DNA of 64,000 bases, taken from assembly GCA_040901675.1 (NCBI GenBank), contig JBBDYJ010000038.1:32001-96000 (forward strand), given 5' to 3'. The translations under genes and the position numbers were made by a program. The DNA comes from Pirellulales bacterium (GTDB taxonomy: Bacteria; Planctomycetota; Planctomycetia; Pirellulales; JAICIG01). The notes under the pieces are model-generated. The model was not told the origin of the DNA and made no database searches. It was given only the letters and a program-made list of their open reading frames with translations. Of this stretch, positions 35,406 through 52,610 are shown piece after piece. The first letter of the stretch is position 1, and every line of letters begins with the position of its first letter.

Positions 35406-35701
35406 AGTCCAACGGGCCCCACGGAGAATCGAGCCTCCAGAATCCCCTACCAATTAACTTTACGACCGCTGCCAGCCATGTCCACACGAAATCCCGGCCG
35501 TCGCCAGAATCTGCCATGCCGCCCGCCGGCCTGTAACGCTGCTCGCCCGTCTGCGGCCCACGGTATGTTAGCTCTGCCGCTTCGAACAGCTTCACATGAC
35601 CTGACTTCCGAGTAGAATCAACTTCCGAGCAGGGGCGCTGTGCCGCAACTTGCGAGATGAGTTGCGTGGGCGTCGCCGATTCGTCGATCCGGATGTGCCG
35701 C

Positions 35702-36457
35702 ATGACCGAAAAATACTGGCTGCTGAAGTGTTGCCGCCTCTTCGAGCACCTCGCCGGTGAACAATTGGGCCGGCTCGAAAGATGCAGCCGGGTTCGGACC
35801 TTTGCGCGTGGCAGCCCGATTTACCTGCCCGCCGACGAAGCCAACGGCGTGCTGGTGCTCGCCAGCGGACGGGCGAAAATCTGCGGCTTTTCGGCCGACG
35901 GAAAGCAGGCGATCCTGGCCTTCGTCGAACCGGGCGAACTGTTCGGAGAACTGGCCCTCTTCGAGCAAGGTCCGCGGGAAGAATATGCCGAGGCCGTGGA
36001 AGCGTCGAAAGTCGTACTCATACCTGGCGACGACCTGCAGCGGCTGATGGAAGAATCTCCCGGCCTGTCGCTGGGCATCACCCGGCTGATCGGGCTCCGC
36101 CGCCGGCGCATCGAGCGCCGGCTCAAATACTTGCTGTTCCGCTCCAACCGGGATCGCCTGGTCAACCTGCTGTTGGAACTGGCCGAGCAATACGGGACCA
36201 GGAAACCGGAGGGACTGCTTCTCGACATCCGTTTGTCTCACCAGGATTTGGCGAGCATCATTGGGGCCACCCGTGAAACGGTCACGGTGATTCTGGGCGA
36301 GTTGCAAGCAGAGGGGTGCCTGAAGCTTGGCCGGCGCCGGATCGTGTTGATCCAGCCCGAGCGGCTGGCGGCAGGTGTCGAAGCGCCCGTGCCACGCCCC
36401 GCGGGGATCAAGCCGCTGCCGGCGCGCGACGCGAAAGCGCTTCCACGCATACTGTGA
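35702..36457 (+). CDS. Crp/Fnr family transcriptional regulator
   Basis: cNMP-binding-like domain (GELFGELAL) and HTH LSHQDLASIIGATRETVT. Confidence 0.93.
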   Translation: MTEKYWLLKCCRLFEHLAGEQLGRLERCSRVRTFARGSPIYLPADEANGVLVLASGRAKICGFSADGKQAILAFVEPGELFGELALFEQGPREEYAEAVEASKVVLIPGDDLQRLMEESPGLSLGITRLIGLRRRRIERRLKYLLFRSNRDRLVNLLLELAEQYGTRKPEGLLLDIRLSHQDLASIIGATRETVTVILGELQAEGCLKLGRRRIVLIQPERLAAGVEAPVPRPAGIKPLPARDAKALPRIL

Positions 36458-36468
36458 GATGTTTCACC
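36453..36468. promoter_or_regulatory. CRP-type box TGTGA-GATGTT-TCACC
   Basis: 9/10 match to TGTGA-N6-TCACA, 78 bp upstream of 36546. Confidence 0.65.
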
Positions 36469-36545
36469 GAGAAACCCCAGCAAACTTGCGATAAAACAGG
36501 TGGCGGCGGTCAGTTGCGACAGCTCCGCCCCAGGATCGAAGAACC

Positions 36546-38000
36546 ATGCCTCGAAAACCCGCCGACCCCGATCGTTGGCAACCGTGCCCGCCAGGCGAGC
36601 TCGTTGGACTCGCAGGTCGATTAAAGGCCAAGCGCCGCAGACGCGTGATCGAGGCGGCCCTGGCCACGTCCCTCGCGGCCCTGCTGATGGTCTGGGCCGG
36701 CGTTTATTTCGGCGTTCAGCGATCCCCGCAGCCGACCGACTTCGAATTCGGCGGCATCGCGTGCAGCGAGGTTCGCCCAATTGTGGCAAAGTACATGTCC
36801 GGCGAGCTCGATCCGGCGCTGGCCGCCCGCGTGCGCGAGCACCTTGCCCACTGCGCTGCTTGCGGGAGATTGATGGAGGGCGTGCAGAAGTCCGTTTCGG
36901 CGCCGTCGCTCCCACCGCGCCTTGCCGAGCGCCCAGGTGTGGCCGCCGTCATCGGCAGCCGGCCGTTGATTTCGCTGCGCGCGGTGGCCCTGTGGGCACT
37001 TTTCAGTGATGCCGCGGCTGACGATGCCGAGATCAGCCCCGCCGGCTGGCTGGCCGCGTTCGCGGACCAGTGGGATGACCAACGTTGGCTGTCCAAGCCC
37101 TCGGGCTACATGCGGCCGCTCGACGACGAAGGTTGGCGGGCCCGGATGCGGGCTTTCCAGGCACTGGTCAAGGCGGGGAGCGGCTCGGTCGACCCATTGC
37201 TACAAACTCTGCGCGAAGGGACCACCACCCAACGGATCCTGGCCGCCCAGGTGCTCGGCTATCTGGGCCAGGATGTGCCGCGCCAAGCGTTGATCGAAGT
37301 CGCCCGCGCCGACTCGGACCCCGCCGTCCGGCTCTATGCGATTGCTTCGTTGGGGATGCTTGGTGCCGCGGAACAGGCCGCTTTGCTCCAGGAATTGGCC
37401 GAGTCGGAATCGAATCGTGACGCGAAAAAACACATTGCCTATGCCGTGGGCCGCAATGGGCGGCCGCTCGACGCCATGGTGACAGCCAAGCTGGCCGGAT
37501 GGGACCTCGGCCGCCTCGACACGGCCAAGCTGGGACAAGCGGCGCCCGATTTTGAGTTGACCAGCTTGTCGGGCGAAACGGTCCGGCTGAGCCAGTTTCG
37601 TGGACAAAAGGCGGTGGTGCTGGTCTTCGTCTACGGCGACACGTGACCGGTCTGCCACAGGCAGCTCGCGCAGTTGCGCGACAACCTCAAGGCGATCGAG
37701 GCCGCCGGCGCCCAGCTCCTGGCGGTCGATCCACACGAATCCTGGTCAGCCAAGCACCTGCTCCAAGAGGTGGGCCTGGACACGGCCGACGTGCACTACC
37801 CGTTGCTCAGCGACCCGTCGCTGGTGGTCAGCGCCACCTACGGCGTCGCCTTCCAGATGCGGATCCACACGGAACTGAGCAACCGGCCGGCCACGTTCAT
37901 CGTCGATAGGGAAGGCATCCTCCGGTATGAACGCCGGGCGACGACGTTCTCCGATCGCCCCGCGGTGGACCAGGTCCTCTCGGAACTCAAGAAGCTTTAG
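36546..38000 (+). CDS. Putative selenoprotein: TM + zf-HC2-like + HEAT repeats + AhpC/TSA redoxin domain with U-P-V-C (TGA 37644-37646)
   Basis: ORFs 36546-37646 and 37674-38000 share one frame; APDFELTSLSGETVRLSQFRGQKAVVLVFVYGDT-TGA-PVCHRQL...RPATFIVDREG; hairpin TCGCGC-AGTT-GCGCGA downstream. Confidence 0.82.
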
Positions 38001-38502
38001 ATCCAACGCCTGGGCTGCCGCCGGTGCCCTCCACGTCCTCCACCGCGCCGGTAGGTCTGCGGCGCGCCGCGCGCCCGGCAGCCCACAAGACGACTCCGGC
38101 CACTGTTACCGGGACGACTGGAATCTCGATCAGCGTGGCCAGCACAAAGAAATATCGCTGGATAAAGTAAGACTGCCGCCAGCCGGATGCATGGGGCAGC
38201 CATGTCATGGCCTGCCAGATTGCGATTGCCGCCAATCCCACCGCGCCCGCGGCAAACAGCACCACGCCAGCTCGCCGCAGTGTAGCGGGTTTGGACGTTC
38301 GCCAGGCCAGCATAACCGGTCCGGCAAGAAGCACGGCCCAAAACGCATGGCACGACACGAGGGTCTGTAGCGGTGGGCCGCAACCCCAAGGGCCGCAGAT
38401 GTCGTGTCCCCAGTCCCCCGGTAGCTGACCGATCTTCAGGGTACCGAACAGAGCGGCCGCCCAACCAGCCGTCGCCAGTGCGCGCAAGACAAGCCGGGGC
38501 AC
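37987..38502 (-). CDS. Membrane protein with HxxCGPWGCGPP motif
   Basis: GTG start with AAGGAG RBS; four TM segments; HDICGPWGCGPP...SCH. Confidence 0.7.
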   Translation of the reverse strand: MPRLVLRALATAGWAAALFGTLKIGQLPGDWGHDICGPWGCGPPLQTLVSCHAFWAVLLAGPVMLAWRTSKPATLRRAGVVLFAAGAVGLAAIAIWQAMTWLPHASGWRQSYFIQRYFFVLATLIEIPVVPVTVAGVVLWAAGRAARRRPTGAVEDVEGTGGSPGVGSKAS

Positions 38503-38586
38503 CTGCTTCTCCTTCCCCCATCGAGGCCCGTCCAGATTGTACCGCGGGTGAGGGGGGGCGTGTGTGAGCCGGCACACACTGCTCTC

Positions 38587-38657
38587 GCTTTTTTCAACGG
38601 GCTGTCTGGTTTTGCAGGGCTTGGAACGTTGTATAGATAGGACCTTCCTGCCGCCGC
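38587..38657 (+). promoter_or_regulatory. Putative ECF-type promoter, copy A (upstream of precursor/MNIO operon)
   Basis: 60/71 identical to the reverse complement of 54149-54219. Confidence 0.75.
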
Positions 38658-38670
38658 ATTTGGTTGGCCA

Positions 38671-38686
38671 TGTGTGCCATTTCACA
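38671..38686. promoter_or_regulatory. CRP-type box TGTGT-GCCATT-TCACA
   Basis: 9/10 consensus match; a further box TGTGA-GCCGGC-ACACA lies at 38563-38578. Confidence 0.55.
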
Positions 38687-38795
38687 GTCCGCCGGCGGAT
38701 CAGGGATTAAGGTGCGGGAAGCGGGGGAAGCAGGCAAGGCGGTTCGCCTGGTCCCGACCGTTGTTCCATTCTTTGCACGCAAGCAGGAGACTGGC

Positions 38796-39227
38796 ATGAA
38801 GAAAACTGGCTTGACTCGACGTGACTTTCAGAACCTGTCGCTGGCGGCCGCGGGAGGCCTGCTGATCGGCGCCGGCGGCACCTCGGAGGCCTCCGCTGCC
38901 CAAGACAAAAGGAACGCCCAAGACAAGGACGATGACAAGAACCCGTTGCTGGTCGAGCCGCACGTCTGCCGCGGGCTCAACGCCTGCGCTGGATTGTCGG
39001 CCTGCGCCACGGCGGAGGCCCACGACTGCAAGGGTCAGAACGCGTGCAAAGGCCAGGGGGGCTGCGGCGCTCGCCCGGGCGAAAACGCCTGCAAGGGAAT
39101 GGGTGACTGCGCCGTGCCGCTCACGGAAAAGAAATGGAAGACGGCCCGCGCCCGTTTTGAGCAGTTGATGAAAACGGAACGCAAGGAATTCGGCAAGGCT
39201 CCGACAACGGGTAAGGCGAAGTCATAG
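38796..39227 (+). CDS. Cys-rich bufferin-like (BufA2-type) MNIO precursor with twin-arginine signal
   Basis: AGGAG RBS; TRRDF signal and ASA cleavage-like site; 8 Cys including CKGQNACKGQGGC and NACKGMGDC; directly upstream of DUF692. Confidence 0.82.
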   Translation: MKKTGLTRRDFQNLSLAAAGGLLIGAGGTSEASAAQDKRNAQDKDDDKNPLLVEPHVCRGLNACAGLSACATAEAHDCKGQNACKGQGGCGARPGENACKGMGDCAVPLTEKKWKTARARFEQLMKTERKEFGKAPTTGKAKS

Positions 39228-39258
39228 CCTGCCGGTGCGCTTCGGCACCAAGTCTCCT

Positions 39259-39301
39259 CGGCCGCCGCGGTGGCCCGCTACCACCGCGCCGGCCGCTTTT
39301 T
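39259..39301 (+). terminator. Hairpin with U-tract between precursor and MNIO gene
   Basis: CGGCCG-C-CGCGGTGG-CCCGCTA-CCACCGCG-C-CGGCCG-CTTTTT. Confidence 0.55.
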
Positions 39302-39377
39302 GAATCGCCCGCCCGCGCGGAAGTTGGCTTTTTCCCATTCTCGTTAAAAGTGCAGTCCTTGAGCCAGGCAGCGTCAA

Positions 39378-40301
39378 ATGAGCCCGCAGCGTTTAGGTCA
39401 TCCCGATCTTGGCATGGGCGTGGGCCTGAGGTCAGCCCATTTCTCGCACATCCTCGAACACCAGCCCGGGGTCGATTGGTTCGAGGTCATCTCCGAGAAC
39501 TTCATGGATTCCCAGGGGCGGCCGCGCTACGTCGTCGACCAGATCGCCGAGCGATATCCGCTGGTCATGCACGGCGTTTCACTTTCCATCGGCAGTTGCG
39601 ACCCCCTCAATTTCGATTACCTCCAGCGGCTCAAGCGCCTGGCCGACGGCATCCGGCCTCGCTGGATTTCGGACCACCTCTGCTGGACCGGCGTGATGGG
39701 CCTCAACACGCACGACCTGCTGCCCATTCCCCTCAACGAGGAATCGCTCCGGCACGTGGTCGAGCGGATCCGGATCGTGCAAGACTTTCTCCAGCGTCCG
39801 CTCGTGCTCGAGAATCCGAGTACCTACGTGACGTTTGCCGATTCGACGATCCAGGAGTGGGAGTTCGTCAGCCGCATGGCCGAGGAGGCCGACTGCGGGC
39901 TGCTGCTCGACGTGAACAACGTTTACGTGTCGAGCGTCAACCACGACTTCGATCCCACCGAGTATATCGGGCGGCTGCCTCATCGGCGCATCGTGCAGTT
40001 TCACCTGGCGGGCCATACCAACTGCGGCACGCACTTGATCGATACGCACGACGGCCCGGTCATCGACCCGGTGTGGGAGCTTTACCGGCTGGCCCACGAG
40101 CTCACCGGTGGCGTGTCGACGCTGCTGGAGTGGGACGCCAAGATCCCCGAGTTCCCCGTGGTCCATGCCGAAGCGCTCAAGGCCCGCCGCTGGCGGCAGG
40201 CCCACTCCAGCCCGCCGCCGGCCACCCGCCCGGCCATCCCGGCGGCGGCCCCCGTCTCGGTGCCGCAGCCGCTGGCGCACCTGGTGGTGGACGTTTCATG
40301 A
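39378..40301 (+). CDS. DUF692 multinuclear non-heme iron oxidative enzyme (MNIO, BufB-like)
   Basis: [56 protein letters not shown]. Confidence 0.95.
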
Positions 40302-41179
40302 GTGGTCAGCCTGCCAACTTGGCGCGCCTGCAGCGCTGGATGCAGGCCGTGATCATGCACCCGGACGGGGTCGAAGGCGGCGTGGGGTCGCCCGAAGCGC
40401 GGCGGCTGGTCGATATCGCGTTGGATCAACTCGAACAGGTGATCCACCCTTCGCGGGCGCTCGGCAGCGCCGAACGGCTCGAGATCTATGTGGATGCCTA
40501 TCATCTGCGGCTGATGGATTGCCTGCGAAACCAGTTTCCCGCCCTGGTGAACGCTTTGGGTGAAGCGACCTTCGATGCCGTAGCGTTCGGCTACCTGGGA
40601 GCCTACCCGTCGCGTGGGTATTCTTTGAACAAGTTGGGCGAAAACCTCCCCCAGTTCCTGGCCCAGAACCGCCCGCACGAGTCCGCGGCGCCCGCTGATG
40701 CGCCGTCGAGCTGGCCCGACGGCATCATCGAGCTTTCCACGTTCGAGCGGGCCGTGCAGGAGATCTTCGACGGCCCCGGCGTCGAGGGACAACGGCTGCT
40801 GGAACAAGCGGAGCTGTCGGCGATCGCGCCCTTGGATTGGCCCGGCGCTCGCCTGAAGTGTGTCGAGTGCTTGCGCCTGTTCCGCTTCGCCCATCCCGTA
40901 AACGCCTGGTATTCGCAACTGCGGCACGTCCCATGTCCGCCTCCAGGCCCGTGCGAGTCGCACGTCGCGCTGGTGCGGCAAGATTATACCGTCCGTCGCC
41001 ACGAGCTTTCGCGCCCCCAATACGAGTTGCTGCTGTGCCTGGCGGCGGGCAGCTCGATCGCTTCGGGCATGGAAGCAGCGCTCGGCGGGGCCCGTGACGA
41101 CGTGGCGGACTTGGCCGTCCAAGTGCAGGGCTGGTTTCAGCAATGGGCGACGGGGGGCTTTTTCAGCGGTGTCCAATGA
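40298..41179 (+). CDS. DUF2063-type MNIO partner protein (BufC/HvfC-like)
   Basis: ATGA overlap with DUF692 gene; ERLEIY..AY..RL..CL..QFPAL...LGE..F. Confidence 0.88.
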
Positions 41180-41323
41180 GCGCGTGGAATGTGGTGCCGG
41201 ATACAGAAGCGGCCACGGCCCGCGCACTATGCTAAACAGCCGGGCGTTTTCGAAAGGCTTTTTGGCGTATTCAAGCCCGGGTTTACCCGGTTGAGCTCTT
41301 CAATTCAGTTAGGAGTCGCTTGC

Positions 41324-42514
41324 ATGACTCGGGCGCAAACAACCGCGAATTCATCGCGTCGAGCGGCGCGATGGGCCGGCGGATTGTTGCGGGTGATCGC
41401 GGTCGCGGCCTTGGTTTGGACCGCGTTGTATTGGCACGCCCTTGATCCCACGTACTTGGCGCAAAATGTCCCAGGGCGCCGCGCGCCGCCGAGGCAGACA
41501 TTCGATCTCGAACGGCTGCTCTTGCCTCGGGAGCGGGTTCTGTCGGGAGGCGTGCCCAAAGACGGCATCCCCGCGCTCACCAACCCGCCGCTCGTGCCCG
41601 CCGCCCAGGCCGAGTACCTCCAACCTGGCGACCGGGTGATCGGAGTGGTCATCCAGGGCGAGGCGCGGGCCTACCCGGTCATGGTTCTCACGCGGCACGA
41701 AGTGGTCAATGAGCGGGTGGGCGGCATGCCCGTCGCGGTCACCTATTGCCCGCTGTGCGATTCAGTGGCCCTCTTCGACCGGCGCACCGAGCTCGGCGAG
41801 CGCGAGTTCGGCGTCTCCGGCCTGCTCTACAACAGCAACGTGTTGATCTACGACCGCGGCGGCAAGTCGGAGGGCCTCTGGTCTCAGTTGCTGGCCGGCG
41901 GTGTCTCGGGTCCCGGCTCCGGCACGCCGCTCAAACCGCTTCCCGTGGAGTTGACCACGTGGGCGGATTGGACCGAGCGCTATCCGGAAACCAAGACGCT
42001 TGCGGCCAGCGACGCCGAAGGACGCGCCTTTCGCAACAATCCGTATCGCCGCTACCTTGCCAGTCCGGACCTGATGTTTCCCGTGCAGCCGATCGACAAG
42101 CGTTTGCCCCTGAAGGAGAGGGTGCTGGGCGTTTGGACCGGGAAGGCGGCCCGGGCCTACCCGGTGTCGGCACTGGCCAAACTGCGGGAGCCGTTGTCCC
42201 AGGAGATCGACGGGCGCAAGTTCACGCTGGTCTACAACCCGAAGGCGCAAAGCGTGCGCATGAGCGATGCCGACGAGGGCCTGCATTGGATGTACTCGTT
42301 CTGGTTTGGCTGGTTCGCGTTCCACCCCGACACGGAACTGTTCACGGCGCGGGACGCGGCGGGCACACCGCGCCGGCCAAAAACTTCCAGCCGGGCGACT
42401 CCGGAGGCACGAAATCCCGTCAAGCAGCGCCGCGCCGGCTTCGCGCCAGCCGACGGGGACCGGCCTCCGGCTTCGACGGTTTCGTCAATTCGCTGGGCGA
42501 AGCACTTTCTGTGA
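41324..42514 (+). CDS. DUF3179 family protein
   Basis: SGGVPKDGIPAL, ARAYP...HEVVN, VTYCPLC, FGVSGLLYNSN..YDR, FWFGW.AFHP. Confidence 0.9.
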   Translation: MTRAQTTANSSRRAARWAGGLLRVIAVAALVWTALYWHALDPTYLAQNVPGRRAPPRQTFDLERLLLPRERVLSGGVPKDGIPALTNPPLVPAAQAEYLQPGDRVIGVVIQGEARAYPVMVLTRHEVVNERVGGMPVAVTYCPLCDSVALFDRRTELGEREFGVSGLLYNSNVLIYDRGGKSEGLWSQLLAGGVSGPGSGTPLKPLPVELTTWADWTERYPETKTLAASDAEGRAFRNNPYRRYLASPDLMFPVQPIDKRLPLKERVLGVWTGKAARAYPVSALAKLREPLSQEIDGRKFTLVYNPKAQSVRMSDADEGLHWMYSFWFGWFAFHPDTELFTARDAAGTPRRPKTSSRATPEARNPVKQRRAGFAPADGDRPPASTVSSIRWAKHFL

Positions 42515-42660: not shown

Positions 42661-44292
42661 ATGAGAGTTTTGACAAGCTTCGGCCTGGCGGCGGCCCTGT
42701 GGGCCGGCGCGTCGGCCGCAAGCGCCGGAGAACTGAAGAGCGGCCTGCAGTCCGGCGATTCAGTGGGCGCCTTCGATGTAGTCAAGATCGCCGGCGCGGC
42801 CGACGACGGCGTGCAGGTGGGCAAAAAGCTCTGCTATCGGTGAATGTACGGTGGCAGACCCGTCGTCATGGTTTTCACCCGGAAAACCGACGCGGCCTTG
42901 GCCAGTTTGGTCAAGCAACTCGACAAGTTGGTGGCGAAGCACGAAGAGCAGCAACTGCGGGTGTTCGTCAACCTGATTGGTGAAGACAGGGAGGCCTTGG
43001 AGGCGGAGGCAAAAAAGTTCGGCGCGAAGCACAAGGTCGCCAACGTGCCGATCGTGGTCCCGGTGGAGCACGAAAACGGCCCCGACAACTTCGGCATCAA
43101 TCCGGATGCCGCGGTGACCGTCACGCTCTACAGCGGGCTCAAGGTCAACTCCAGCCATGCCTTCGACAAGTTCAAGAAGGACGACGCCAAAACGGTCCTG
43201 GCGGACGTGCCCGCGCTACTGGAGGAGTCCGCTGCCGCCTCCGACGAGGCCCAGACGGACGAGGCGAACTTTCACGCCTCTGATCACTACGGGCGTCTTG
43301 ACTTCTCGCCCGACGGAGCGCGGTTGGCCGTGGGCGGACCAACCGGGCAGATTCACGTTTGGAATCTGAAGGAGAAGAAATTCGTCCGCGTCCTACGGCG
43401 CAGCGACGAACGGATGCTGGAAGACGTCGCGTGGAATCCGCAGGGCACCAGGCTGGCCGCTGTGGACATTTGGGGCCGTCTGTCGATCCACGACGCCGCC
43501 AGCGGGAAAGAGCTGCATTTCCTCTCGGCACGACGTCGAGAAGAGGCGATCGGCAGCAAGGAGAGGCTCGTCGCGAGTCTCGCTTGGAATCTTGCCGGCG
43601 ATTCAATGGTCCTGACTACAGCGAACGGATTTGCCGTCTGGAACCCGGACGTTCCTGCGGAATCCGAGGCGGCGGTGCCGGACACGGACGACGACCGCTT
43701 CTCCGCCTGGCACGGCACAATCAGCGCCGACGGACGGCGGCTGGCGCAAGTCGACGAGTACGGCAAGTTCCGGGTGTGGAATTTGCACACGGGCGAAATC
43801 GCCCTGCGGTCTGCGGATTTCAAGGGATGCCAGGTCTATGTCGCGTGGAGTCCCGACGATCGGCGGATCGCCCTGAGCAGCAACTCGACACTCCGCATCG
43901 TGGATGCTCGGACGGGAGCTATCGTACGCGACGTCGAAACACCCCAACAGTCCTCGATTGTCGCTTGGAGTCCAGACAGCAAGATCCTGGCGGTGGCCCA
44001 GGGCTGGCTCAACCGATGGAGCAGTTCCGACCGCCCCAATAAGGCGATCTCGCTTGTCAATTCGGAGGACGGAACCATCCGTCACAGGCTCAACTCGGGA
44101 TTGATGAACATCGAGGCCCTGGCATGGAGCACGGACGGCAAGACCCTTGCCTCGACTGGCTCCTCCAAGGTGTGGAGGCTCGACCGGAACGGCGATCCGC
44201 AGGTCGTCGCGAATCCGGAGATGCCGGTCTCCCTGTGGGATGCAGAGAACGGCAGGCTGTTCTATCAAATCACTCCGGCCGAAGAACCGTAA
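42661..44292 (+). CDS. Putative secreted selenoprotein: thioredoxin-like domain with C-Y-R-U (TGA 42841-42843) fused to WD40 repeats
   Basis: AAGGAG RBS and signal peptide; GKKLCYR-TGA-MYGGRPVVMVFTR continuous in frame; hairpin GGTGGCAGACC/GGTTTTCACC after TGA; WSPD-type repeats. Confidence 0.8.
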
Positions 44293-46016: not shown

Positions 46017-46032
46017 AGTGAGCTAATTCACA
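46017..46032. promoter_or_regulatory. CRP-type box AGTGA-GCTAAT-TCACA
   Basis: 9/10 match, 86 bp upstream of the HMA gene start. Confidence 0.65.
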
Positions 46033-46076: not shown

Positions 46077-47849
46077 TCAACCGCCGGCGCCGGCCGGACG
46101 GGCGGCCGGGGGCTCGCCGATGGCACGCAGCAAGCGGGCCTGGGCGCGATTGTAGTCGGACACGGCCCGCGTGTAGGCGTTCTGCGCCTCGGTACGGGCC
46201 CGGATGGCCTGCTGCAGCTCAATCGGCAAGCCTTCGCCCTGACGAATCCGCCCCAGGGTGAGACGCAGCGCCTCGCTGGCGGCCGCCACGTTTTCCAGGG
46301 CGATGTCGAACTGTTCCCGATAACTGCCGACGTCGGACGACGCGGTGACGATCTCGGCAGCCACGAGATCCCGCGCCAGGCTGGTCTCGAACCGCGCCTG
46401 GCGCATCTGGCTGGCACGCTGGCGGCGCAGCACGCCATTGCCAAAACCGAGGTTCCGCAACTCCCAGGCTGCAATCGCATCCAGGTCGCTGCGGCTTCCC
46501 TGGTTGTCGAATTGGCCGGAAGGACCTCCCCCAAAGCTCCCCGCGCTGGCACCCACCGCAAGGTGCGGCAGCCAGGGACGCCACCGTTCCTGGTCCAGGC
46601 GTTCCAATGCGGCCCGCACCAGCGCCTGCTGCTGGGCCAGCTCGGGCCGGCTGGTGAATCCTTGCGCCAACAGCGCCTCCAGCGGCATCTGCTCGTTGAC
46701 CAGCTCGATGGGCACGGCACGCTCCTCGGCCGGCACCAAGACCACCCCGGGCGCCAGCCGCAGGAGCCGCGCCAACTCGGCGCTGCGCGCCCGCACCTGC
46801 CGCAGGCTGTCCGCGGCCGCCTGCCGCCAGAACGCCAGTTCGGCGTTGGCGCGGTCGAACTCCGACCGCGCACCACGCCCCTCGCGGAAAAAACTGCCGG
46901 TGATCTCCGACATCTCCCGCGCCGCGGCCACACCCGATTCGGCGTTGGCCAGCAGGCCGTCCGCCTCGACCACGTCGAAATAGGCCGTGGCCACGGCCAA
47001 CAGCGTATCGTTGACGTCGGTGGTGCGGGCGGCCGCTTGTGCCCGCACCAGTTGCCTGGCGACCAGCGGTTCAAAAGCGGCGTCGGCCAGGGCCAGATCG
47101 ACAAAGAGCCGCGCCGGGCCGCCGGCGGCCCCGTTGAGAGGGCGCGTTCCCAGCCCGGCGCCGCCGCCCACGAACAGCGAGCTCCGCCCCGCTTCAATCA
47201 CCTCGCCTTCGGTCGCCTGCAGTCGGCCGTCGTGCTTGTTGTATCCCACGGCCGCCCGCAGCGAAGGTATCCATAGCAGCCGTGCCTGGTCCAGGTTTGC
47301 TTGGGCTTCGACCACGCGCTCGCGAGCCAGCCGGATTCGCAGGTTGTTCGCCCCCGCCAGGGCCAATGCGTTGGCCAGGTCGATCGGAAAGGTCTCGCCT
47401 TGGAAGGCCACCGCGGGTCTGGGCAGCGGCAGGCTCTCCGGAGTCGCCGTCCTGGCTTCCGCGCCAGGCATCGCTTCCGCGCCAGGCGTCCGCCGAGCCG
47501 AAGGCCGGTCGTCCGTCGGATCGTTGCCCGTCTGGGACTCGGCCACGCTCGGAGCGTCGAGAACGAATTGCACCCGGGCGGCAGAGTGGCTGCCGGCGGC
47601 CGGCCCATCTCCCCGGTCGCCGCCGGCCTGCACCACCGGTAACTCCGAGGCGGGCTCGGCGGCAGAGGCTTGCCTGGCCGGGTCGGCTTCGACCGGCTGC
47701 ATCCATGCTCGATCCAGCGGCAACGACGCTACGGGCCGGTCGGCCGTCACCGTGCGCGAATTCAGCGGCAACCCCGTCTGACATCCCACCACGGCCGCAC
47801 AAGACCCGACCCACCACGCGATTGAGCGGCGCCTCTTGATTGCATCCAT
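46077..47849 (-). CDS. TolC family outer membrane protein
   Basis: VVGC lipobox-like signal, IDL..AL.LA...N, two OEP-like helical repeats, YNRAQARL; follows RND and MFP genes. Confidence 0.88.
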   Translation of the reverse strand: MDAIKRRRSIAWWVGSCAAVVGCQTGLPLNSRTVTADRPVASLPLDRAWMQPVEADPARQASAAEPASELPVVQAGGDRGDGPAAGSHSAARVQFVLDAPSVAESQTGNDPTDDRPSARRTPGAEAMPGAEARTATPESLPLPRPAVAFQGETFPIDLANALALAGANNLRIRLARERVVEAQANLDQARLLWIPSLRAAVGYNKHDGRLQATEGEVIEAGRSSLFVGGGAGLGTRPLNGAAGGPARLFVDLALADAAFEPLVARQLVRAQAAARTTDVNDTLLAVATAYFDVVEADGLLANAESGVAAAREMSEITGSFFREGRGARSEFDRANAELAFWRQAAADSLRQVRARSAELARLLRLAPGVVLVPAEERAVPIELVNEQMPLEALLAQGFTSRPELAQQQALVRAALERLDQERWRPWLPHLAVGASAGSFGGGPSGQFDNQGSRSDLDAIAAWELRNLGFGNGVLRRQRASQMRQARFETSLARDLVAAEIVTASSDVGSYREQFDIALENVAAASEALRLTLGRIRQGEGLPIELQQAIRARTEAQNAYTRAVSDYNRAQARLLRAIGEPPAARPAGAGG

Positions 47850-47966
47850 GCGAATCGTTCCTGTCGTTGGTCGCTCAATCCGATCCAGCCGGCATCTTCC
47901 CTCTATCCGTTGTAATCGGAGGCGATAGTCAGCTTTGTTGAGGAACTTTCTTTAAAGCGCCTCTTC

Positions 47967-49301
47967 CTACTCGTCTTGTCCGCCGTTGGCCGAAGGTGAA
48001 AGGCGAACCTCGACCTTCTGCCCGTCGGTCAATCGTTCGCCGGCGCGGGCCACCACGGTTTCTCCAGGCTCGGCGCCGCTCGCCAGCCAGACCACGGTGT
48101 CCTTGCGCAGCACCGAAACAGGGCACCTGCGGACCCGGCCCTGCTCGACGATCATCACGCAATCGCCGCGGTCGTCTGAAACCAGGGCCGCCGCCGGAAC
48201 CGTCGGCGTGTCTCGCCGGGTGTCCAACGTCAACTCCACGTTTCCCAGCACGCCTGGCTCCAGTTTCCGCCTGCCGTAGGACCCGTCGACCGGATTGTCC
48301 AAATCGACTTCGGCCCGCATCTTTCGCGACCCTTCGTTGAAAGCCACCGCATACCGCGATATTCTCCCCTCGATCGGGTTGCCACTGGGCCCGCGAAACA
48401 CAACCGGATCACCCACGTTGAGCTTGCCTGCCGCGTCCATCGTGAGCCAGACCACCAGCCGCAGCTTGTTGTTACGGACCAGCGAGAAGAGCGGCTTGGC
48501 GCTGCCGGCGCTGGCCGGCCGCACAAACGTGCCCCGGTCGATCATGCGGCCGGTGACGACGCCGGCAAATGGCGCCCTGATGACGGTGAACGATTGCATG
48601 GCCTCGGCCTTCTCCCGTGCTGCTTCGGCCGTGCCGATGCGGGCCTCGGTGCTGAGGACATGGGCCTGGGCGGTGTCGACCTGGGCAGCCGCCCGCCGCA
48701 GCGAGGCCACGGATGACTCGAGGGCATAGCGGGCCTCGTCGCGCAATTGCCCCTTCAGGCTGCCGTCCTCGACCAGCGCGGTAATACGCTGGTATTCCGC
48801 CTGGCGCAGCCGCCTTTGCGCTTCGAACTCCTCGACGGTCGCCTTGGCTTCCTCGAATTCGGCTTTCTTACTCGCCAGGTCGGCCTGGGCCTGCTTGACC
48901 AAGGCCCGGCTCTCAGCAACCGCAGCGAGCAACTCGGGCGCGGCGACCGTGGCCAGCACATCCGACTCAGCGACCTCGTCGCCGATGTCCACGTTCACCT
49001 TGTCGATGTACCCCTCGACACGGCCCATCAATTGCACGGTCTCGTAACCGTCGACGTTGCCCGTCAGGTTCACGACCTCTCGCAAATCCGCCGACCGCAC
49101 CGTGGCCACCTCGACCAAGGCGGCCTGATCGGCGGCGGCGCCGGTTGCCGCTTCCGAGGCGGCATAGTCGCAGCCGGCCAGGCCGACCATGGTCAAGGCC
49201 GCCAGCCCGGCGATGGTCAAGGCCGCCAGCCCGATCAGCAAGGGCAAGAAGGCCCTCGCCGAAACGGCCGCGGCGCCGGGTGTGATGAGGTTCTTTTGCA
49301 T
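47967..49301 (-). CDS. RND efflux periplasmic adaptor (MFP)
   Basis: RVEGYIDKVNVDIGDEV, coiled coil, IRAPFAGVVTGR. Confidence 0.92.
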   Translation of the reverse strand: MQKNLITPGAAAVSARAFLPLLIGLAALTIAGLAALTMVGLAGCDYAASEAATGAAADQAALVEVATVRSADLREVVNLTGNVDGYETVQLMGRVEGYIDKVNVDIGDEVAESDVLATVAAPELLAAVAESRALVKQAQADLASKKAEFEEAKATVEEFEAQRRLRQAEYQRITALVEDGSLKGQLRDEARYALESSVASLRRAAAQVDTAQAHVLSTEARIGTAEAAREKAEAMQSFTVIRAPFAGVVTGRMIDRGTFVRPASAGSAKPLFSLVRNNKLRLVVWLTMDAAGKLNVGDPVVFRGPSGNPIEGRISRYAVAFNEGSRKMRAEVDLDNPVDGSYGRRKLEPGVLGNVELTLDTRRDTPTVPAAALVSDDRGDCVMIVEQGRVRRCPVSVLRKDTVVWLASGAEPGETVVARAGERLTDGQKVEVRLSPSANGGQDE

Positions 49302-49361
49302 CGGTCGGCTCCATCATTTGTTGGCAAAGTTGCAAAGTTGTGCACGCCCGGCAATGTCGCC

Positions 49362-52300
49362 TCAGTTCGCCGGCAGGGCTTCTTGGGGCATCCGCTTGAA
49401 CATCACGTACAGGCAGGGAACGACCAGCAGCGAGAGTGCGGTCGCCCCCAGCACGCCTCCGATAATGGCCCGCGCCAGCGGCATGTTGGCCTCGCCGCCG
49501 CCAAAACCGAAAGCCATGGGCAACAGCGCAAGCCACGTCGTGACGGAGGTCATCAGGATCGGCCGCATCCGGACCTGCGCGGCATCGACAATCGCCTCTT
49601 GAACTCCCAACCCCTCGCGGAGGCGGTGGTTGGCGAAATCGACCAGCACGATCGAGTACTCGACCACGATCCCCACCATCATCACGATTCCCATGAAGGC
49701 CATGATCGAAAGACTCGTTCCGGTCAGGTACAACAGCGCCACCACGCCCACGAACCCCAGCGGCACGGTGAGCATGACCACGAAAGGATCCGCGAAGCTG
49801 CGGAACTGCGCCACCATGACCAGGTAGACGAGCAAGCTGGCGATTACCAGCCCGCCGGAGAACTGGGCGAACGATTCGCGCATGCTACGGACCTCGCCCT
49901 GCATCTCGAAGGCGTATCCCTTGCCGGCGAACTTTTCGCCCTCGACCTGGTAGACGCGCCCCCGCTCCGTGCGGCCGGCCTTGGCCCCCAACTCCGGATT
50001 GGCCTCCAACCGCCGCTCGATCGCCGCCACCACCGAGCCCACATCGAAGCCCGGCAGCACGTTGGCGTACACGTCCGTGGCGCGGGTGATGTTGTGATGG
50101 TTGATCACGGCCGGGCCGGTCGTGCGCTCGATCCGCGCCAGGTTCCGCAGCCGGGCCGGTTCGCTGCTGTTCACCCCGGTGATCGGGATGTCGAGCAACG
50201 TATCGAGCGAATTGATGTCTTCCTCCCGATACTGCACGCCCATGAAGTAGTGGTTCCCGTTGCGCTCGTCGATCCAGAAAGCCGGGTCGAAGTTGATCGA
50301 GCTGTTGGTGGCGCTCACCAGGTTCTTCATCACGTTCTCGGGCGTCACTCCCTGGTACGCCGCCAGCACGCGGTCCATGTTCACTTGCAGAATCGGGTAG
50401 TCCATCCGCTGCGCGATTCGCACGTCGGCAGCCCCCTCGACTTGCCGCGCCTCGTCGCGGATCATCACGGCGATCTCCTGCGCGGTGTCGAGATTCGATC
50501 CCGTCACCTGGAAGTGAATGGGCGACGGCTCCCCCATGTTCAACGCCGCCGTCATCATGCCGCCCGTGTCGAACGCGAATTCCACCTCCGGGAACCGCCG
50601 CGTCAACTCGCGGCGCAGGCGGTCCACGTACTCGAATGTGCCCGGCTGGCCGGCCTTCCCCTTGAGCTGCACCAGGATAAAGGCGTCCATCGGGCCCGTG
50701 TTGGGCGTGTAGGCGGCCGGCCAGTCCATCAGCACGCCGATGTTGGAAATCAGGATCTGCATGTTCGATTCAGGAACCTGCTCGTCGCCCAGGGCAAAAG
50801 CGGGGTCGGGCCGGCCGATCTCGGCGATCAGCGCCTGTTCGATCTCGTCGATCCTGGCTTCGGTCCGCTCGATCCGCGTTCCCGACGGCATCCGCGCATA
50901 GATGGTGAACTGGCCCGCGTCGACCGGCGGGAACAGCTCGGTCCCCAGCCGCGTCAGGCCCACCACCGAGACCACGAACAGCACGGCGGCCGCCAGCACC
51001 ACGGCACGCCGCGCCCGCAGCACGCCCCGCAGCAGCCGCCCGTAGGCCCGCACCAACCCGCCGGCGCGCTCGGTTCCCCCGCCCGCCGGCACGCGCAGAA
51101 AGCGCGCGCAATAGGCCGGCACGATCGTGATCGACAGCAGGTAGGAGGCGGCGATGGCGATGCTGGCCGAGACTGCCAGCGGCGTGAACAGGAACTTAGC
51201 CAGCCCCGACAAAAACACGATCGGATAAAAGACGACGATGAACGTAATCGTCGAGACCAGGATCGGCAGGGCCACTTCACGCGTGCCGTCCAGCGCGGCC
51301 TCGAATGGCTTCTTGCCCATCTGCGCATGCCGCACCACGTTTTCCAAAACCACGATCGACTGGTCGACCAGGATGCCGATGGCCAAGGCCAGCCCACCCA
51401 GCGTCATGGCGTTGATCGTGTCGCCCGTGTAGAAAAGCCCGACAACCGCCGCCAGGATGGCCAAGGGAATCGCCAACACGATGATCAGCGTCGATCGCAG
51501 GCTGCGGAGGAACAGGAGCACGACGACGCCGGCCAGCACGGCCCCCAAGCCGGCCGCGATTTGCAATCCTTGGATGCTCTGCCGGACGCCAACCGATTGG
51601 TCCATGGCCACCGAGAGCACCAGTCCCTGGATCTTCGGGTCGTCGGCGTTCATGTCCTTCAGCCGGCTCAGCATCTGGTCCAGCCGGTCCTTGATCGAGT
51701 CGACGATCTGGATGGTGTTGGCCCCCGGCTGCCGGTAGATGGGAATGTACACCTGCCGAGCCCCGTTGACCCGCACCACGTTGGTCTGAATCTGGCCCGC
51801 GTCGCGCACCTCGCCGACGTCCTGCATCAGCACCGGAGCCCCGTCGACGATCTTGATGGGAGCCTGGTTCAGCTCCTCGACCAGCCGGGGAATCGAGTTG
51901 GTGAAGATCTGGAAATCGTAGTCCCCGATCTTGGCGTTCCCGGCGGGGATCAGCACGTTCTGTTCCCGCAGCGCCTGCTGCACGTCCATCAGCGAAAGCC
52001 CCCGCGCCTCCAGCTTCTCGCGGTCCACATAAGCCAGGATCCGCCGCAGCTTGCCGCCGTACACCGCCGGCGCAATCACTCCCTGGATCGACTGCAGCCG
52101 GTTGCGCAGCTCGAAATAGGCGATGTCGTACAGCTCCTTCTCGCTCATCTGCGGATTCGAGACCACCACCAGGCACAGCGGCACCGAGGCCGTGGGATCA
52201 AACGGCATCACCATCGGCGGGATCGTGCCCGGCGGAAGGTAGTACATGTCGCTCACGGCATAGCTGGTCACCTGCGACATGGCCGTGTCCATCGAGATGT

Positions 52301-52610
52301 TCTCGTGGAAAAAGTCCTTGACCACGGAGACGCCCAGCATCGCCTTGCCTTCCTGGTGCTCGATTCCCATCGACTGCCCCGTCCAGCGCTCCATCCGGCT
52401 CATGATGTCCTTTTCCATCACTTCCGGCGGCATGCCCGGATAGAAGGTCAGGATTTGCACCGCCGGAGTCTTGAACGTCGGCAGCAAATCCCGCGGGATC
52501 GGCTGGATCCCCAACGCCGGCACCCCCACGTAGGAGACGCTGCCCAGCACGAGAATGGCCAGCGCCGCCACGATCACCAGGTGCGGGTTATTGAGCGCGG
52601 TTCGGATCAT
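49362..52610 (-). CDS. RND efflux permease
   Basis: 1082 aa; INAMTLGGLALAIGILVD, RMRPILMT, PLARAIIGG. Confidence 0.95.
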   Translation of the reverse strand: MIRTALNNPHLVIVAALAILVLGSVSYVGVPALGIQPIPRDLLPTFKTPAVQILTFYPGMPPEVMEKDIMSRMERWTGQSMGIEHQEGKAMLGVSVVKDFFHENISMDTAMSQVTSYAVSDMYYLPPGTIPPMVMPFDPTASVPLCLVVVSNPQMSEKELYDIAYFELRNRLQSIQGVIAPAVYGGKLRRILAYVDREKLEARGLSLMDVQQALREQNVLIPAGNAKIGDYDFQIFTNSIPRLVEELNQAPIKIVDGAPVLMQDVGEVRDAGQIQTNVVRVNGARQVYIPIYRQPGANTIQIVDSIKDRLDQMLSRLKDMNADDPKIQGLVLSVAMDQSVGVRQSIQGLQIAAGLGAVLAGVVVLLFLRSLRSTLIIVLAIPLAILAAVVGLFYTGDTINAMTLGGLALAIGILVDQSIVVLENVVRHAQMGKKPFEAALDGTREVALPILVSTITFIVVFYPIVFLSGLAKFLFTPLAVSASIAIAASYLLSITIVPAYCARFLRVPAGGGTERAGGLVRAYGRLLRGVLRARRAVVLAAAVLFVVSVVGLTRLGTELFPPVDAGQFTIYARMPSGTRIERTEARIDEIEQALIAEIGRPDPAFALGDEQVPESNMQILISNIGVLMDWPAAYTPNTGPMDAFILVQLKGKAGQPGTFEYVDRLRRELTRRFPEVEFAFDTGGMMTAALNMGEPSPIHFQVTGSNLDTAQEIAVMIRDEARQVEGAADVRIAQRMDYPILQVNMDRVLAAYQGVTPENVMKNLVSATNSSINFDPAFWIDERNGNHYFMGVQYREEDINSLDTLLDIPITGVNSSEPARLRNLARIERTTGPAVINHHNITRATDVYANVLPGFDVGSVVAAIERRLEANPELGAKAGRTERGRVYQVEGEKFAGKGYAFEMQGEVRSMRESFAQFSGGLVIASLLVYLVMVAQFRSFADPFVVMLTVPLGFVGVVALLYLTGTSLSIMAFMGIVMMVGIVVEYSIVLVDFANHRLREGLGVQEAIVDAAQVRMRPILMTSVTTWLALLPMAFGFGGGEANMPLARAIIGGVLGATALSLLVVPCLYVMFKRMPQEALPAN

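Follow-up and report, generated by a model that had tools for sequence, protein, structure and literature searches.

The gene at positions 36546-38000 of the window (the whole stretch of 64,000 nucleotides of Pirellulales DNA that was analysed) probably encodes a membrane-tethered, outward-facing selenocysteine (Sec) oxidoreductase, derived from the incidental joining of two operon neighbours in this one lineage. It is a single frame of 484 codons on the + strand, from an ATG at 36546 to a TAG at 37998-38000, with only one internal TGA (37644-37646, residue 367) in the context VLVFVYGDT-U-PVC, the AhpC/TSA-type motif in which the preliminary description had placed it. Domain searches on the 484-residue read-through product recovered the architecture proposed there: a K/R-rich stretch precedes a hydrophobic helix at about residues 36-57, followed by three Pfam domains, all scoring above their curated cut-offs: zf-HC2 (residues 73-106; 36.2 bits versus 22.2), HEAT_2 (residues 215-300; 43.8 bits versus 27.7) and AhpC-TSA (PF00578, residues 330-461; 95.3 bits versus 26), the last one with the UxxC motif U367-P-V-C370. 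The features of the region are collected in Table 1, in which the start of the Crp/Fnr gene was set by its conserved N-terminus (alignment A4). Structure models were made of the two halves separately (residues 158-484 and the zinc-finger part) and not of the full 484-residue chain; a joint alignment of the full chain was discarded, its zinc-finger rows having landed on the redoxin CxxC.

Table 1. Features of the fusion gene and its upstream region (positions in the window).
Feature	Positions	Strand	Evidence
Crp/Fnr-family transcription factor gene	35702..36457	+	Pfam cNMP_binding, HTH_Crp_2
Palindromic box of CRP type, TGTGA-N6-TCACC; overlaps the stop codon of crp	36453..36468	.	9/10 consensus positions
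Putative -10 hexamer, 21 nt downstream of the box	36490..36495	+	Sequence
Read-through fusion ORF, 484 aa	36546..38000	+	ORF analysis; identical contig, depth 78
Transmembrane helix, residues 36-57, predicted N-in	36651..36716	+	K/R bias in 22/22 aligned proteins; one long helix in model
zf-HC2 / ZAS-like domain, C73, H99, C103, C106	36762..36863	+	Pfam PF13490
Unconserved linker, apparently derived from the C-terminal tail of the once separate zinc-finger protein	36864..36965	+	Alignment
Junction: hydrophobic stretch with signal-peptidase-like AAA at its end; possible internal starts TTG 36966, GTG 36939	36966..37019	+	Alignment
HEAT (alphaRep/PBS-type) repeats	37188..37445	+	Pfam HEAT_2; alphaRep structures are best sequence matches
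AhpC/TSA (Prx-fold) domain, U367-x-x-C370, invariant R447-P448	37533..37928	+	Pfam, alignment
Selenocysteine codon TGA (almost certain)	37644..37646	+	TGA 135, TGT 1, TGC 1 of 137 distinct loci
Bacterial SECIS hairpin, 6-bp stem, loop AGUU (37672-37675)	37666..37681	+	Codon constraint; -10.1 kcal/mol

Judged from the sequences compared, the ancestral cassette in Planctomycetota is a crp/fnr gene, a CRP box with promoter, a gene for a small single-pass zinc-finger protein and a gene for a secreted selenoenzyme that joins HEAT repeats to a peroxiredoxin (Prx) fold. A zinc-finger gene was found near the enzyme gene in 33 of the 137 distinct loci (100 loci had at least 1300 nt of upstream DNA), enzyme genes lacking such a neighbour being the majority. 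Among these 33 loci, one was fused (this window), 20 had the zinc-finger gene as a separate gene directly upstream, six had it further upstream and six in another orientation. The split state in 32 of the 33 loci bears out the earlier suggestion of a recent fusion of two neighbouring genes. Both same-family genomes with the cassette had it split, and a search of 401 genomes of the order gave a full-length match only in the present genome. Searches for longer proteins revealed no second fused protein; neither did the best 150 matches listed in an unindexed search of 1.84 billion representatives, which included seven zinc-finger matches of 149-164 aa. In the database the fused protein is a singleton, with one member on one contig. 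As a conserved design, the sensor-plus-oxidoreductase architecture proposed at first is not supported: these searches gave no second fused protein, and the zinc-finger gene is linked to the Crp/Fnr gene, not to the enzyme gene. On this comparison of sequences, the fusion looks like a local accident.

The way in which the two genes became joined can be partly reconstructed. In 14 of 21 loci, the gap between the zinc-finger stop codon and the enzyme ATG was between -4 and about 50 nt, short distances that make such a fusion easy. C106 and Y188 are 82 residues apart in the fusion, versus a median tail of 48.5 residues plus a median Met-to-YMR distance of 57 in the separate proteins. Set against the tail and signal of split loci, the region C106-Y188 thus lacks about 25-45 codons; this suggests a short deletion, which we infer as the origin of the fusion. 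As an alternative, the stop codon may have been lost and the ATG changed to TTG at 36966. A +1-frame TGA overlaps TTG 36966, but the linker shows no alternative-frame codon-bias block and hence no sign of a recent frameshift; an old frameshift is possible.

Stand-alone homologues start with a signal-like N-terminus, from which their export is likely. Residues 141-158 of the fusion align to the signal-peptide end of 113 of them, and residues 141-153 align also to the hydrophobic tail of separate zinc-finger proteins. The relic signal peptide noticed in the preliminary description can thus be recognised at its AAA/DD end, while its start is ambiguous. The hydropathy of the junction over 19 residues is 1.44, versus 1.85 for the transmembrane helix. 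If the signal were still in use, the enzyme could be made mostly as a stand-alone protein, either from an internal start (TTG 36966 or GTG 36939) or by a cut at the retained AAA. Starts at V132 or L141 would leave 56 or 47 residues to YMRPL, the family range being 44-81; TTG differs from ATG by one base; and the strain of run X2 keeps the AAA, with F153L and D155H nearby. However, no evident ribosome-binding site precedes TTG 36966 or GTG 36939, and an ATG is present within the range expected in 42 of 46 stand-alone homologues. In addition, the short hydrophobic core falls below the family median in 13-residue hydropathy (1.99 versus 2.28), and behind an N-in helix the AAA would lie outside the membrane and be oriented wrongly for cleavage by an ordinary signal peptidase. 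We consider such nested expression unlikely.

The zinc-finger half was compared with known regulators. The ligands C73, H99, C103 and C106 are invariant in 22 of 22 aligned proteins and provide the HxxxCxxC motif and the fourth ligand of ZAS domains, and the profile weakly matches DdvA, RsiW, RslA-type 3hug, RsrA and ChrR (E 2e-4 to 0.02). Foldseek gave no match to the zinc-finger model at E 0.001, the best RslA rows having E about 2.4, and the ESM Atlas contained only unnamed Planctomycetota zf-HC2 clusters. All 22 aligned proteins carry five to eight K/R in the 16 residues before the helix and none to two in the 14 residues after it, which by the positive-inside rule predicts the N-terminus inside and the zinc finger outside the membrane, and not on the cytoplasmic side as in ZAS proteins. 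Directly upstream, the place of an ECF sigma gene is taken by a Crp/Fnr gene, here and in 35 of 44 copies. The label anti-sigma-like, given to this half at the outset, is accordingly apt for the motif, but neither for the topology, predicted to be inverted, nor for the neighbouring regulator. In the homologues L075, L080, L165, L170, L171, L175 and L177, the basic stretch before the helix resembles a twin-arginine export motif (RRQFL).

The Crp/Fnr gene lies directly upstream, on the same strand, in those 35 of 44 distinct copies; where at least 500 nt of upstream DNA is available, the count is 34 of 38. Both counts describe this subfamily only, since the zinc-finger loci were partly recruited via the sequence of the window. 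A box of the type TGTGA-N6-TCACA, with at least eight of ten positions, precedes 23 of 38 homologous zinc-finger genes versus 2.2 expected from shuffles; the 15 genes without it include Gemmataceae-like copies. In the window alone the pattern is not significant, with two matches and 9 of 100 shuffles reaching two. The spacing between box and -10 hexamer presumably corresponds to the geometry of a class II CRP promoter, and in 15 of the 23 homologues the box is likewise followed by a comparable hexamer (a loose pattern with no shuffle control). Five of the 25 best sites genome-wide fall within 10 kb of this island, where boxes stand before the fusion gene, between a divergent 232-aa gene and a bufferin-type precursor gene (two boxes), before a second selenoprotein candidate, and at 46017. 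The further CRP-type boxes are at 38563, 38671, 42510 and 46017, and three of them rank in the top nine genome-wide with a matrix made from the homologous sites. These boxes may be bound by the adjacent Crp protein.

The bufferin-type cluster (38664-42514, +) comprises a BufA2-like precursor (below cut-off), an MNIO BufB (over cut-off), DUF2063 and DUF3179, and genes of this kind recur near the selenoenzyme in other loci. The Crp/Fnr protein and the zinc-finger protein, predicted to face outward, appear with their promoter box to cover this cluster here. Buf2 clusters contain no sigma/anti-sigma genes according to the available part of PMC12452194, and such a pair may therefore regulate some of them.

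The linkage of the zinc-finger gene to crp allows a tentative and rather doubtful regulatory scheme, in which the zinc-finger protein would be a membrane anti-activator of Crp/Fnr: its periplasm-facing ZAS domain would sense thiol or metal stress and signal through a conserved cytoplasmic W-x-x-C-x-x-G, and the selenoenzyme of the regulon, here fused to it, would reset it. The predicted complex of a Crp dimer with the zinc-finger protein scored 0.29 (mark 0.32), which counts neither for nor against binding, and no description of such a transmembrane signalling pair was found in the literature searched. It is improbable, in our view, that the fusion itself was selected as a unit of this type, hard-wiring an outward thiol or metal switch, acting on Crp/Fnr via its cytoplasmic N-terminus, to the enzyme that re-reduces it. 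Such selection would agree with the adjacency of the two genes in 21 distinct loci (this one included), with the linkage of the zinc-finger gene to crp behind a CRP box, and with a frame free of gaps in a relative of about 90% identity (where a stop before 36998 is possible). Moreover, for the ZAS protein RsrA, the accessible text of PMC4598750 states that thioredoxins from within its own regulon reset it. However, the same text describes zinc as structural in most ZAS domains. Each of the two genes is often present without the other, and no second fusion was found among the proteins and genomes searched. Furthermore, a neighbouring gene carries a similar fusion only in this genome among 19 loci, which points to a general tendency to fusion.

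This neighbouring gene is the second selenoprotein candidate (42661-44292, +; TGA at 42841-42843), consisting of a signal peptide, a C-Y-R-U domain and WD40 repeats. At its C-Y-R-U motif, 12 of the 19 loci have TGA and seven TGC, and the other 18 loci end 126-131 residues later, the WD40 extension being found only here. Of 151 genomes of the order, 99 contain homologues of this candidate; it has no NCBIfam match, and its motif was not found in the deep-Sep supplements (PMC12013277).

The reality of the fused frame was examined in sequencing data around the junction, the region near 36930-37020 where the preliminary description had called for a check. The probable source run, which is not independent of the assembly, has a contig of depth 78 that matches 35600-38700 with no differences and no gaps; no RNA data set was listed for the stretch. 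Another sample holds a contig of the relative of about 90% identity, which spans 36730-37258 at depth 4.1 with 55 substitutions and no gaps; its substitutions are shown only from 36998 on, and an in-frame stop within 36730-36997 is possible. For the third strain (run X2), 38 of 95 differences are listed; the listed differences fall in 37 codons, 23 of them synonymous and 14 not, and 36872-36963 lies outside its listed contigs. The linker has a GC3 of 0.73-0.87, and in six 15-codon windows (starts at residues 105-145) the true frame was the best or within 0.07 of the best. An artefact of assembly at the junction, or a harmful deletion newly arisen in a single strain, is very unlikely: the fused protein is a singleton, and the run containing the whole stretch may be the source of the genome itself, but the depth-78 contig is free of differences and gaps, the contig of the relative crosses the junction gap-free, codon use in the linker is coding-like in frame, and the TGA, the SECIS and the 38 invariant columns of alignment A2 are all intact. 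We regard the fusion as real DNA that has probably been passed down within a small lineage. That the frame has persisted across about 10% DNA divergence could reflect selection for the fusion rather than tolerance.

The TGA at 37644-37646 almost certainly encodes selenocysteine, a reading that rests on comparative sequence data. A homologue search with residues 158-366 as query gave 125 proteins, 120 of them listed; [YD]GDT is the exact end of 118 of the 119 listed non-self homologues, i.e., the database records stop at the TGA, and public records name these shortened products 'HEAT repeat domain-containing protein'. Homologous DNA was obtained with patterns ending before the TGA codon and by genome searches. 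Of 184 loci examined, 166 had the motif (the 18 dropped were truncated contigs, HEAT-only matches and more distant paralogues), and these collapsed to 137 distinct loci. The codon at the Sec site was TGA in 135 of them, TGT in one (L058) and TGC in one (L169), so that Cys aligns to the TGA in two homologues; TAA or TAG was found in none of the 137. Beyond the TGA, most homologues run for 117-124 codons to a common C-terminus, with no independent restart of the two halves, and a few MAG copies are frameshifted or end early. Invariant columns flank the TGA on both sides in alignment A2, all 38 of them conserved in the fusion gene. That TGA367 is a true stop, followed by a separate or decaying gene, is hardly credible: databases do end the proteins there and an internal TTG at 37674 opens a 108-aa ORF, but a stop would cut the Prx fold inside its active site, the model built across the TGA is confident, every one of the 135 stop-bearing loci has TGA, Cys homologues exist and the SECIS codons are constrained.

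The hairpin with an AGTT loop, described previously at 25 nt past the TGA, was located where expected. Its codons are nearly fixed in 125 distinct TGA loci (all 105 Ala codons are GCG, all 120 Gln codons CAG, and 122 of the 125 Leu codons TTG), whereas the background use of GCG, CAG and TTG in the same genes is 36%, 64% and 20%, and the codons of a Gln three codons earlier are split 63:61. Each of the six stem pairs is kept in 103-116 of 120 sequences and compensatory change is almost absent, so the support for the hairpin is sequence constraint and not covariation. The TGT homologue L058 lacks the hairpin, and the TGC homologue L169 retains five of the six pairs. Ungapped consensus folding, folding z-scores (-0.99, -2.47, -0.71 and -1.35, not significant in three of the four windows) and a crude genome-wide hairpin filter (passed by 120 TGA sites, mostly noise) were each uninformative alone; it is conservation, not folding energy, that places the hairpin beyond chance. 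With its 4-nt loop, 6-bp stem, 25-nt spacing and -10.1 kcal/mol, the hairpin fits the bSECIS criteria given in the available part of PMC13188914 (loop of 3-9 nt, stem of 4-16 bp, G in the first two loop positions, spacing of 16-37 nt and MFE <= -7.5).

The host genome (G000) encodes selA, selB, selC (tRNA-Sec) and selD, each above its family cut-off. Since selA was found in five of five homologue genomes tested, including that with TGT, its presence does not discriminate. The SelD sequence (L044, C41:140523-144491) lies inside a 775-codon open frame, and its N-terminal extension resembles a flavin oxidoreductase. Probable further selenoprotein genes were picked by eye from a crude scan of this genome: a TlpA-like gene, three tandem Prx-like genes, a thioredoxin-like gene, two AhpD-like CxxU genes and a C-Y-R-U paralogue (C1:170029 (+); C25:15012 (-); C34:54096, 52370 and 51006 (-); C41:113650 (-); C30:67469 (-); C39:51096 (-); C37:11770 (-)). 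In the same genome, 19 tRNA genes are arrayed on one strand at C14:69183-73788.

The conserved unit is, as predicted from its sequence, a secreted HEAT-repeat and Prx-fold UxxC oxidoreductase of Planctomycetota, to which almost all named homologous records belong. The model of residues 158-484, based on 48 sequences, was confident (pLDDT 92.1, pTM 0.91), and the HEAT repeats and the redoxin domain probably form one unit; among the structure matches listed, no solved chain spans both. The HEAT-redoxin module is fused elsewhere to other N-terminal domains: deiodinase-like, DUF3179 and a domain of about 230 aa with no assigned identity (four loci). Such fusions occur in P0155, P0158, P0160, P0174, P0101, L078, L101, L111 and L117, and in P0155 the active-site motif is lost. 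Disulfide-reductase chemistry is suggested by the motif, but the fold is nearest to true peroxiredoxins and retains their Arg, so that the enzyme may be a disulfide reductase or a peroxidase.

Returning to the incidental fusion of operon neighbours, the following sequence of events is proposed. Some 25-45 codons around the zinc-finger stop, the spacer, the enzyme start and the n-region of its signal would have been lost, leaving one frame. The Crp/Fnr protein would activate the promoter, and SelB with tRNA-Sec would decode UGA367 by means of the hairpin. Anchored by the N-in helix, the product would have its zinc finger, its HEAT repeats and its redoxin domain on the outer side of the cytoplasmic membrane, and a soluble periplasmic enzyme would thereby become a tethered one. 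As nucleophile, Sec367 would attack oxidised cysteines in envelope proteins, and possibly peroxides, Cys370 would resolve it, and the HEAT repeats might select or hold partners. Under selenium shortage, translation would stop at the UGA and yield a 366-aa product without active site. We propose that the fusion was tolerated because both halves already faced outward. The occurrence of the same box at the bufferin-type cluster and at the second selenoprotein candidate suggests a metal or thiol-stress regulon.

Two other neighbouring regions were noted. A membrane protein gene with a C-G-P-W-G-C motif (37990-38685, -) is convergent with the fusion gene and reached no family cut-off; its homologues lie near the enzyme gene in several loci. 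At 46077-52610 (-) there are genes for an outer-membrane factor, a membrane-fusion protein and an RND-type transporter, judged from translations only.

With this enzyme, Planctomycetota gain a well-supported, systematically mis-annotated selenoprotein subfamily (HEAT and Prx fold, UxxC), and its nearly invariant SECIS is a good test case for recoding models. The fusion carries less weight: confined to a single lineage, it gives at most a hint that both proteins work in the same compartment. No account of a selenoprotein with HEAT repeats came up in the literature searched, although Haft and Tolstoy 2025 (PMC12013261) or BSepDB could list the family, the latter probably capturing the redoxin domain by homology. 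The term 'HEAT' is absent from the main text of PMC13188914 (term search) and from the text and four supplements of PMC12013277, and the available portion of PMC13326102 describes no such protein. The subfamily is apparently uncatalogued.

No NCBIfam model passed its cut-off for the selenoenzyme, SelL_rel_redox (NF040769) reaching 51.9 of 120 bits and PrxU (NF040737) 41.8 of 270 bits. The closest folds to the redoxin domain are the peroxiredoxins AhpE (5id2; Z 21.6, rmsd 2.2, 150 aligned) and BCP (5enu; Z 20.8, rmsd 2.4, 148 aligned), tied within 1 Z. In the peroxiredoxins AhpE/BCP (5id2, 1xvw, 2cx3, 5enu), C370 aligns to the peroxidatic Cys and R447 to the conserved Arg, a residue with a catalytic role. 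The selenoenzyme differs from them in the motif PxxxT/SxxC(U) of true peroxiredoxins: YGDTUPVC aligns to PAAFSPVC and PLAFTGIC, with Tyr in place of Pro and Sec in place of Thr/Ser; in addition, a Pro, also invariant, is inserted directly after the invariant R447. Known Sec peroxiredoxins carry TxxU, unlike the UxxC found here, and Table 1 of PMC13188914 contains a class 'Prx-like thiol:disulfide oxidoreductase' (PF00578, UxxC), both according to the part of that paper available; by its sequence, the selenoenzyme fits this class and not the TxxU peroxiredoxins. Compared with the Prx-like UxxC selenoproteins as presented there, and with the Desulfosarcina 'AhpC/TSA family protein' (PMC12013277 supplement), it has the same PF00578 domain, the same UxxC position and a similar downstream helix, to which N-terminal HEAT repeats, an export signal and the DT-U-PVC and R-P motifs are added. 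The Cys-containing HEAT and AhpC/TSA paralogues of Planctomycetota (L019, L217-L222, P0191, P0213, P0220, P0261), apparently uncharacterised, share this two-domain architecture and carry CxxC where the selenoenzyme has UxxC; they contain no TGA and are 28-36% identical to the selenoenzyme. As for the zinc-finger half, it has the HxxxCxxC and upstream Cys in common with the ZAS anti-sigma factors RsrA, RsiW, RslA, ChrR and DdvA, but here the domain follows the transmembrane helix and is predicted to lie outside, the reverse of a typical membrane anti-sigma factor, and the regulator adjoining its gene is of the Crp/Fnr family.
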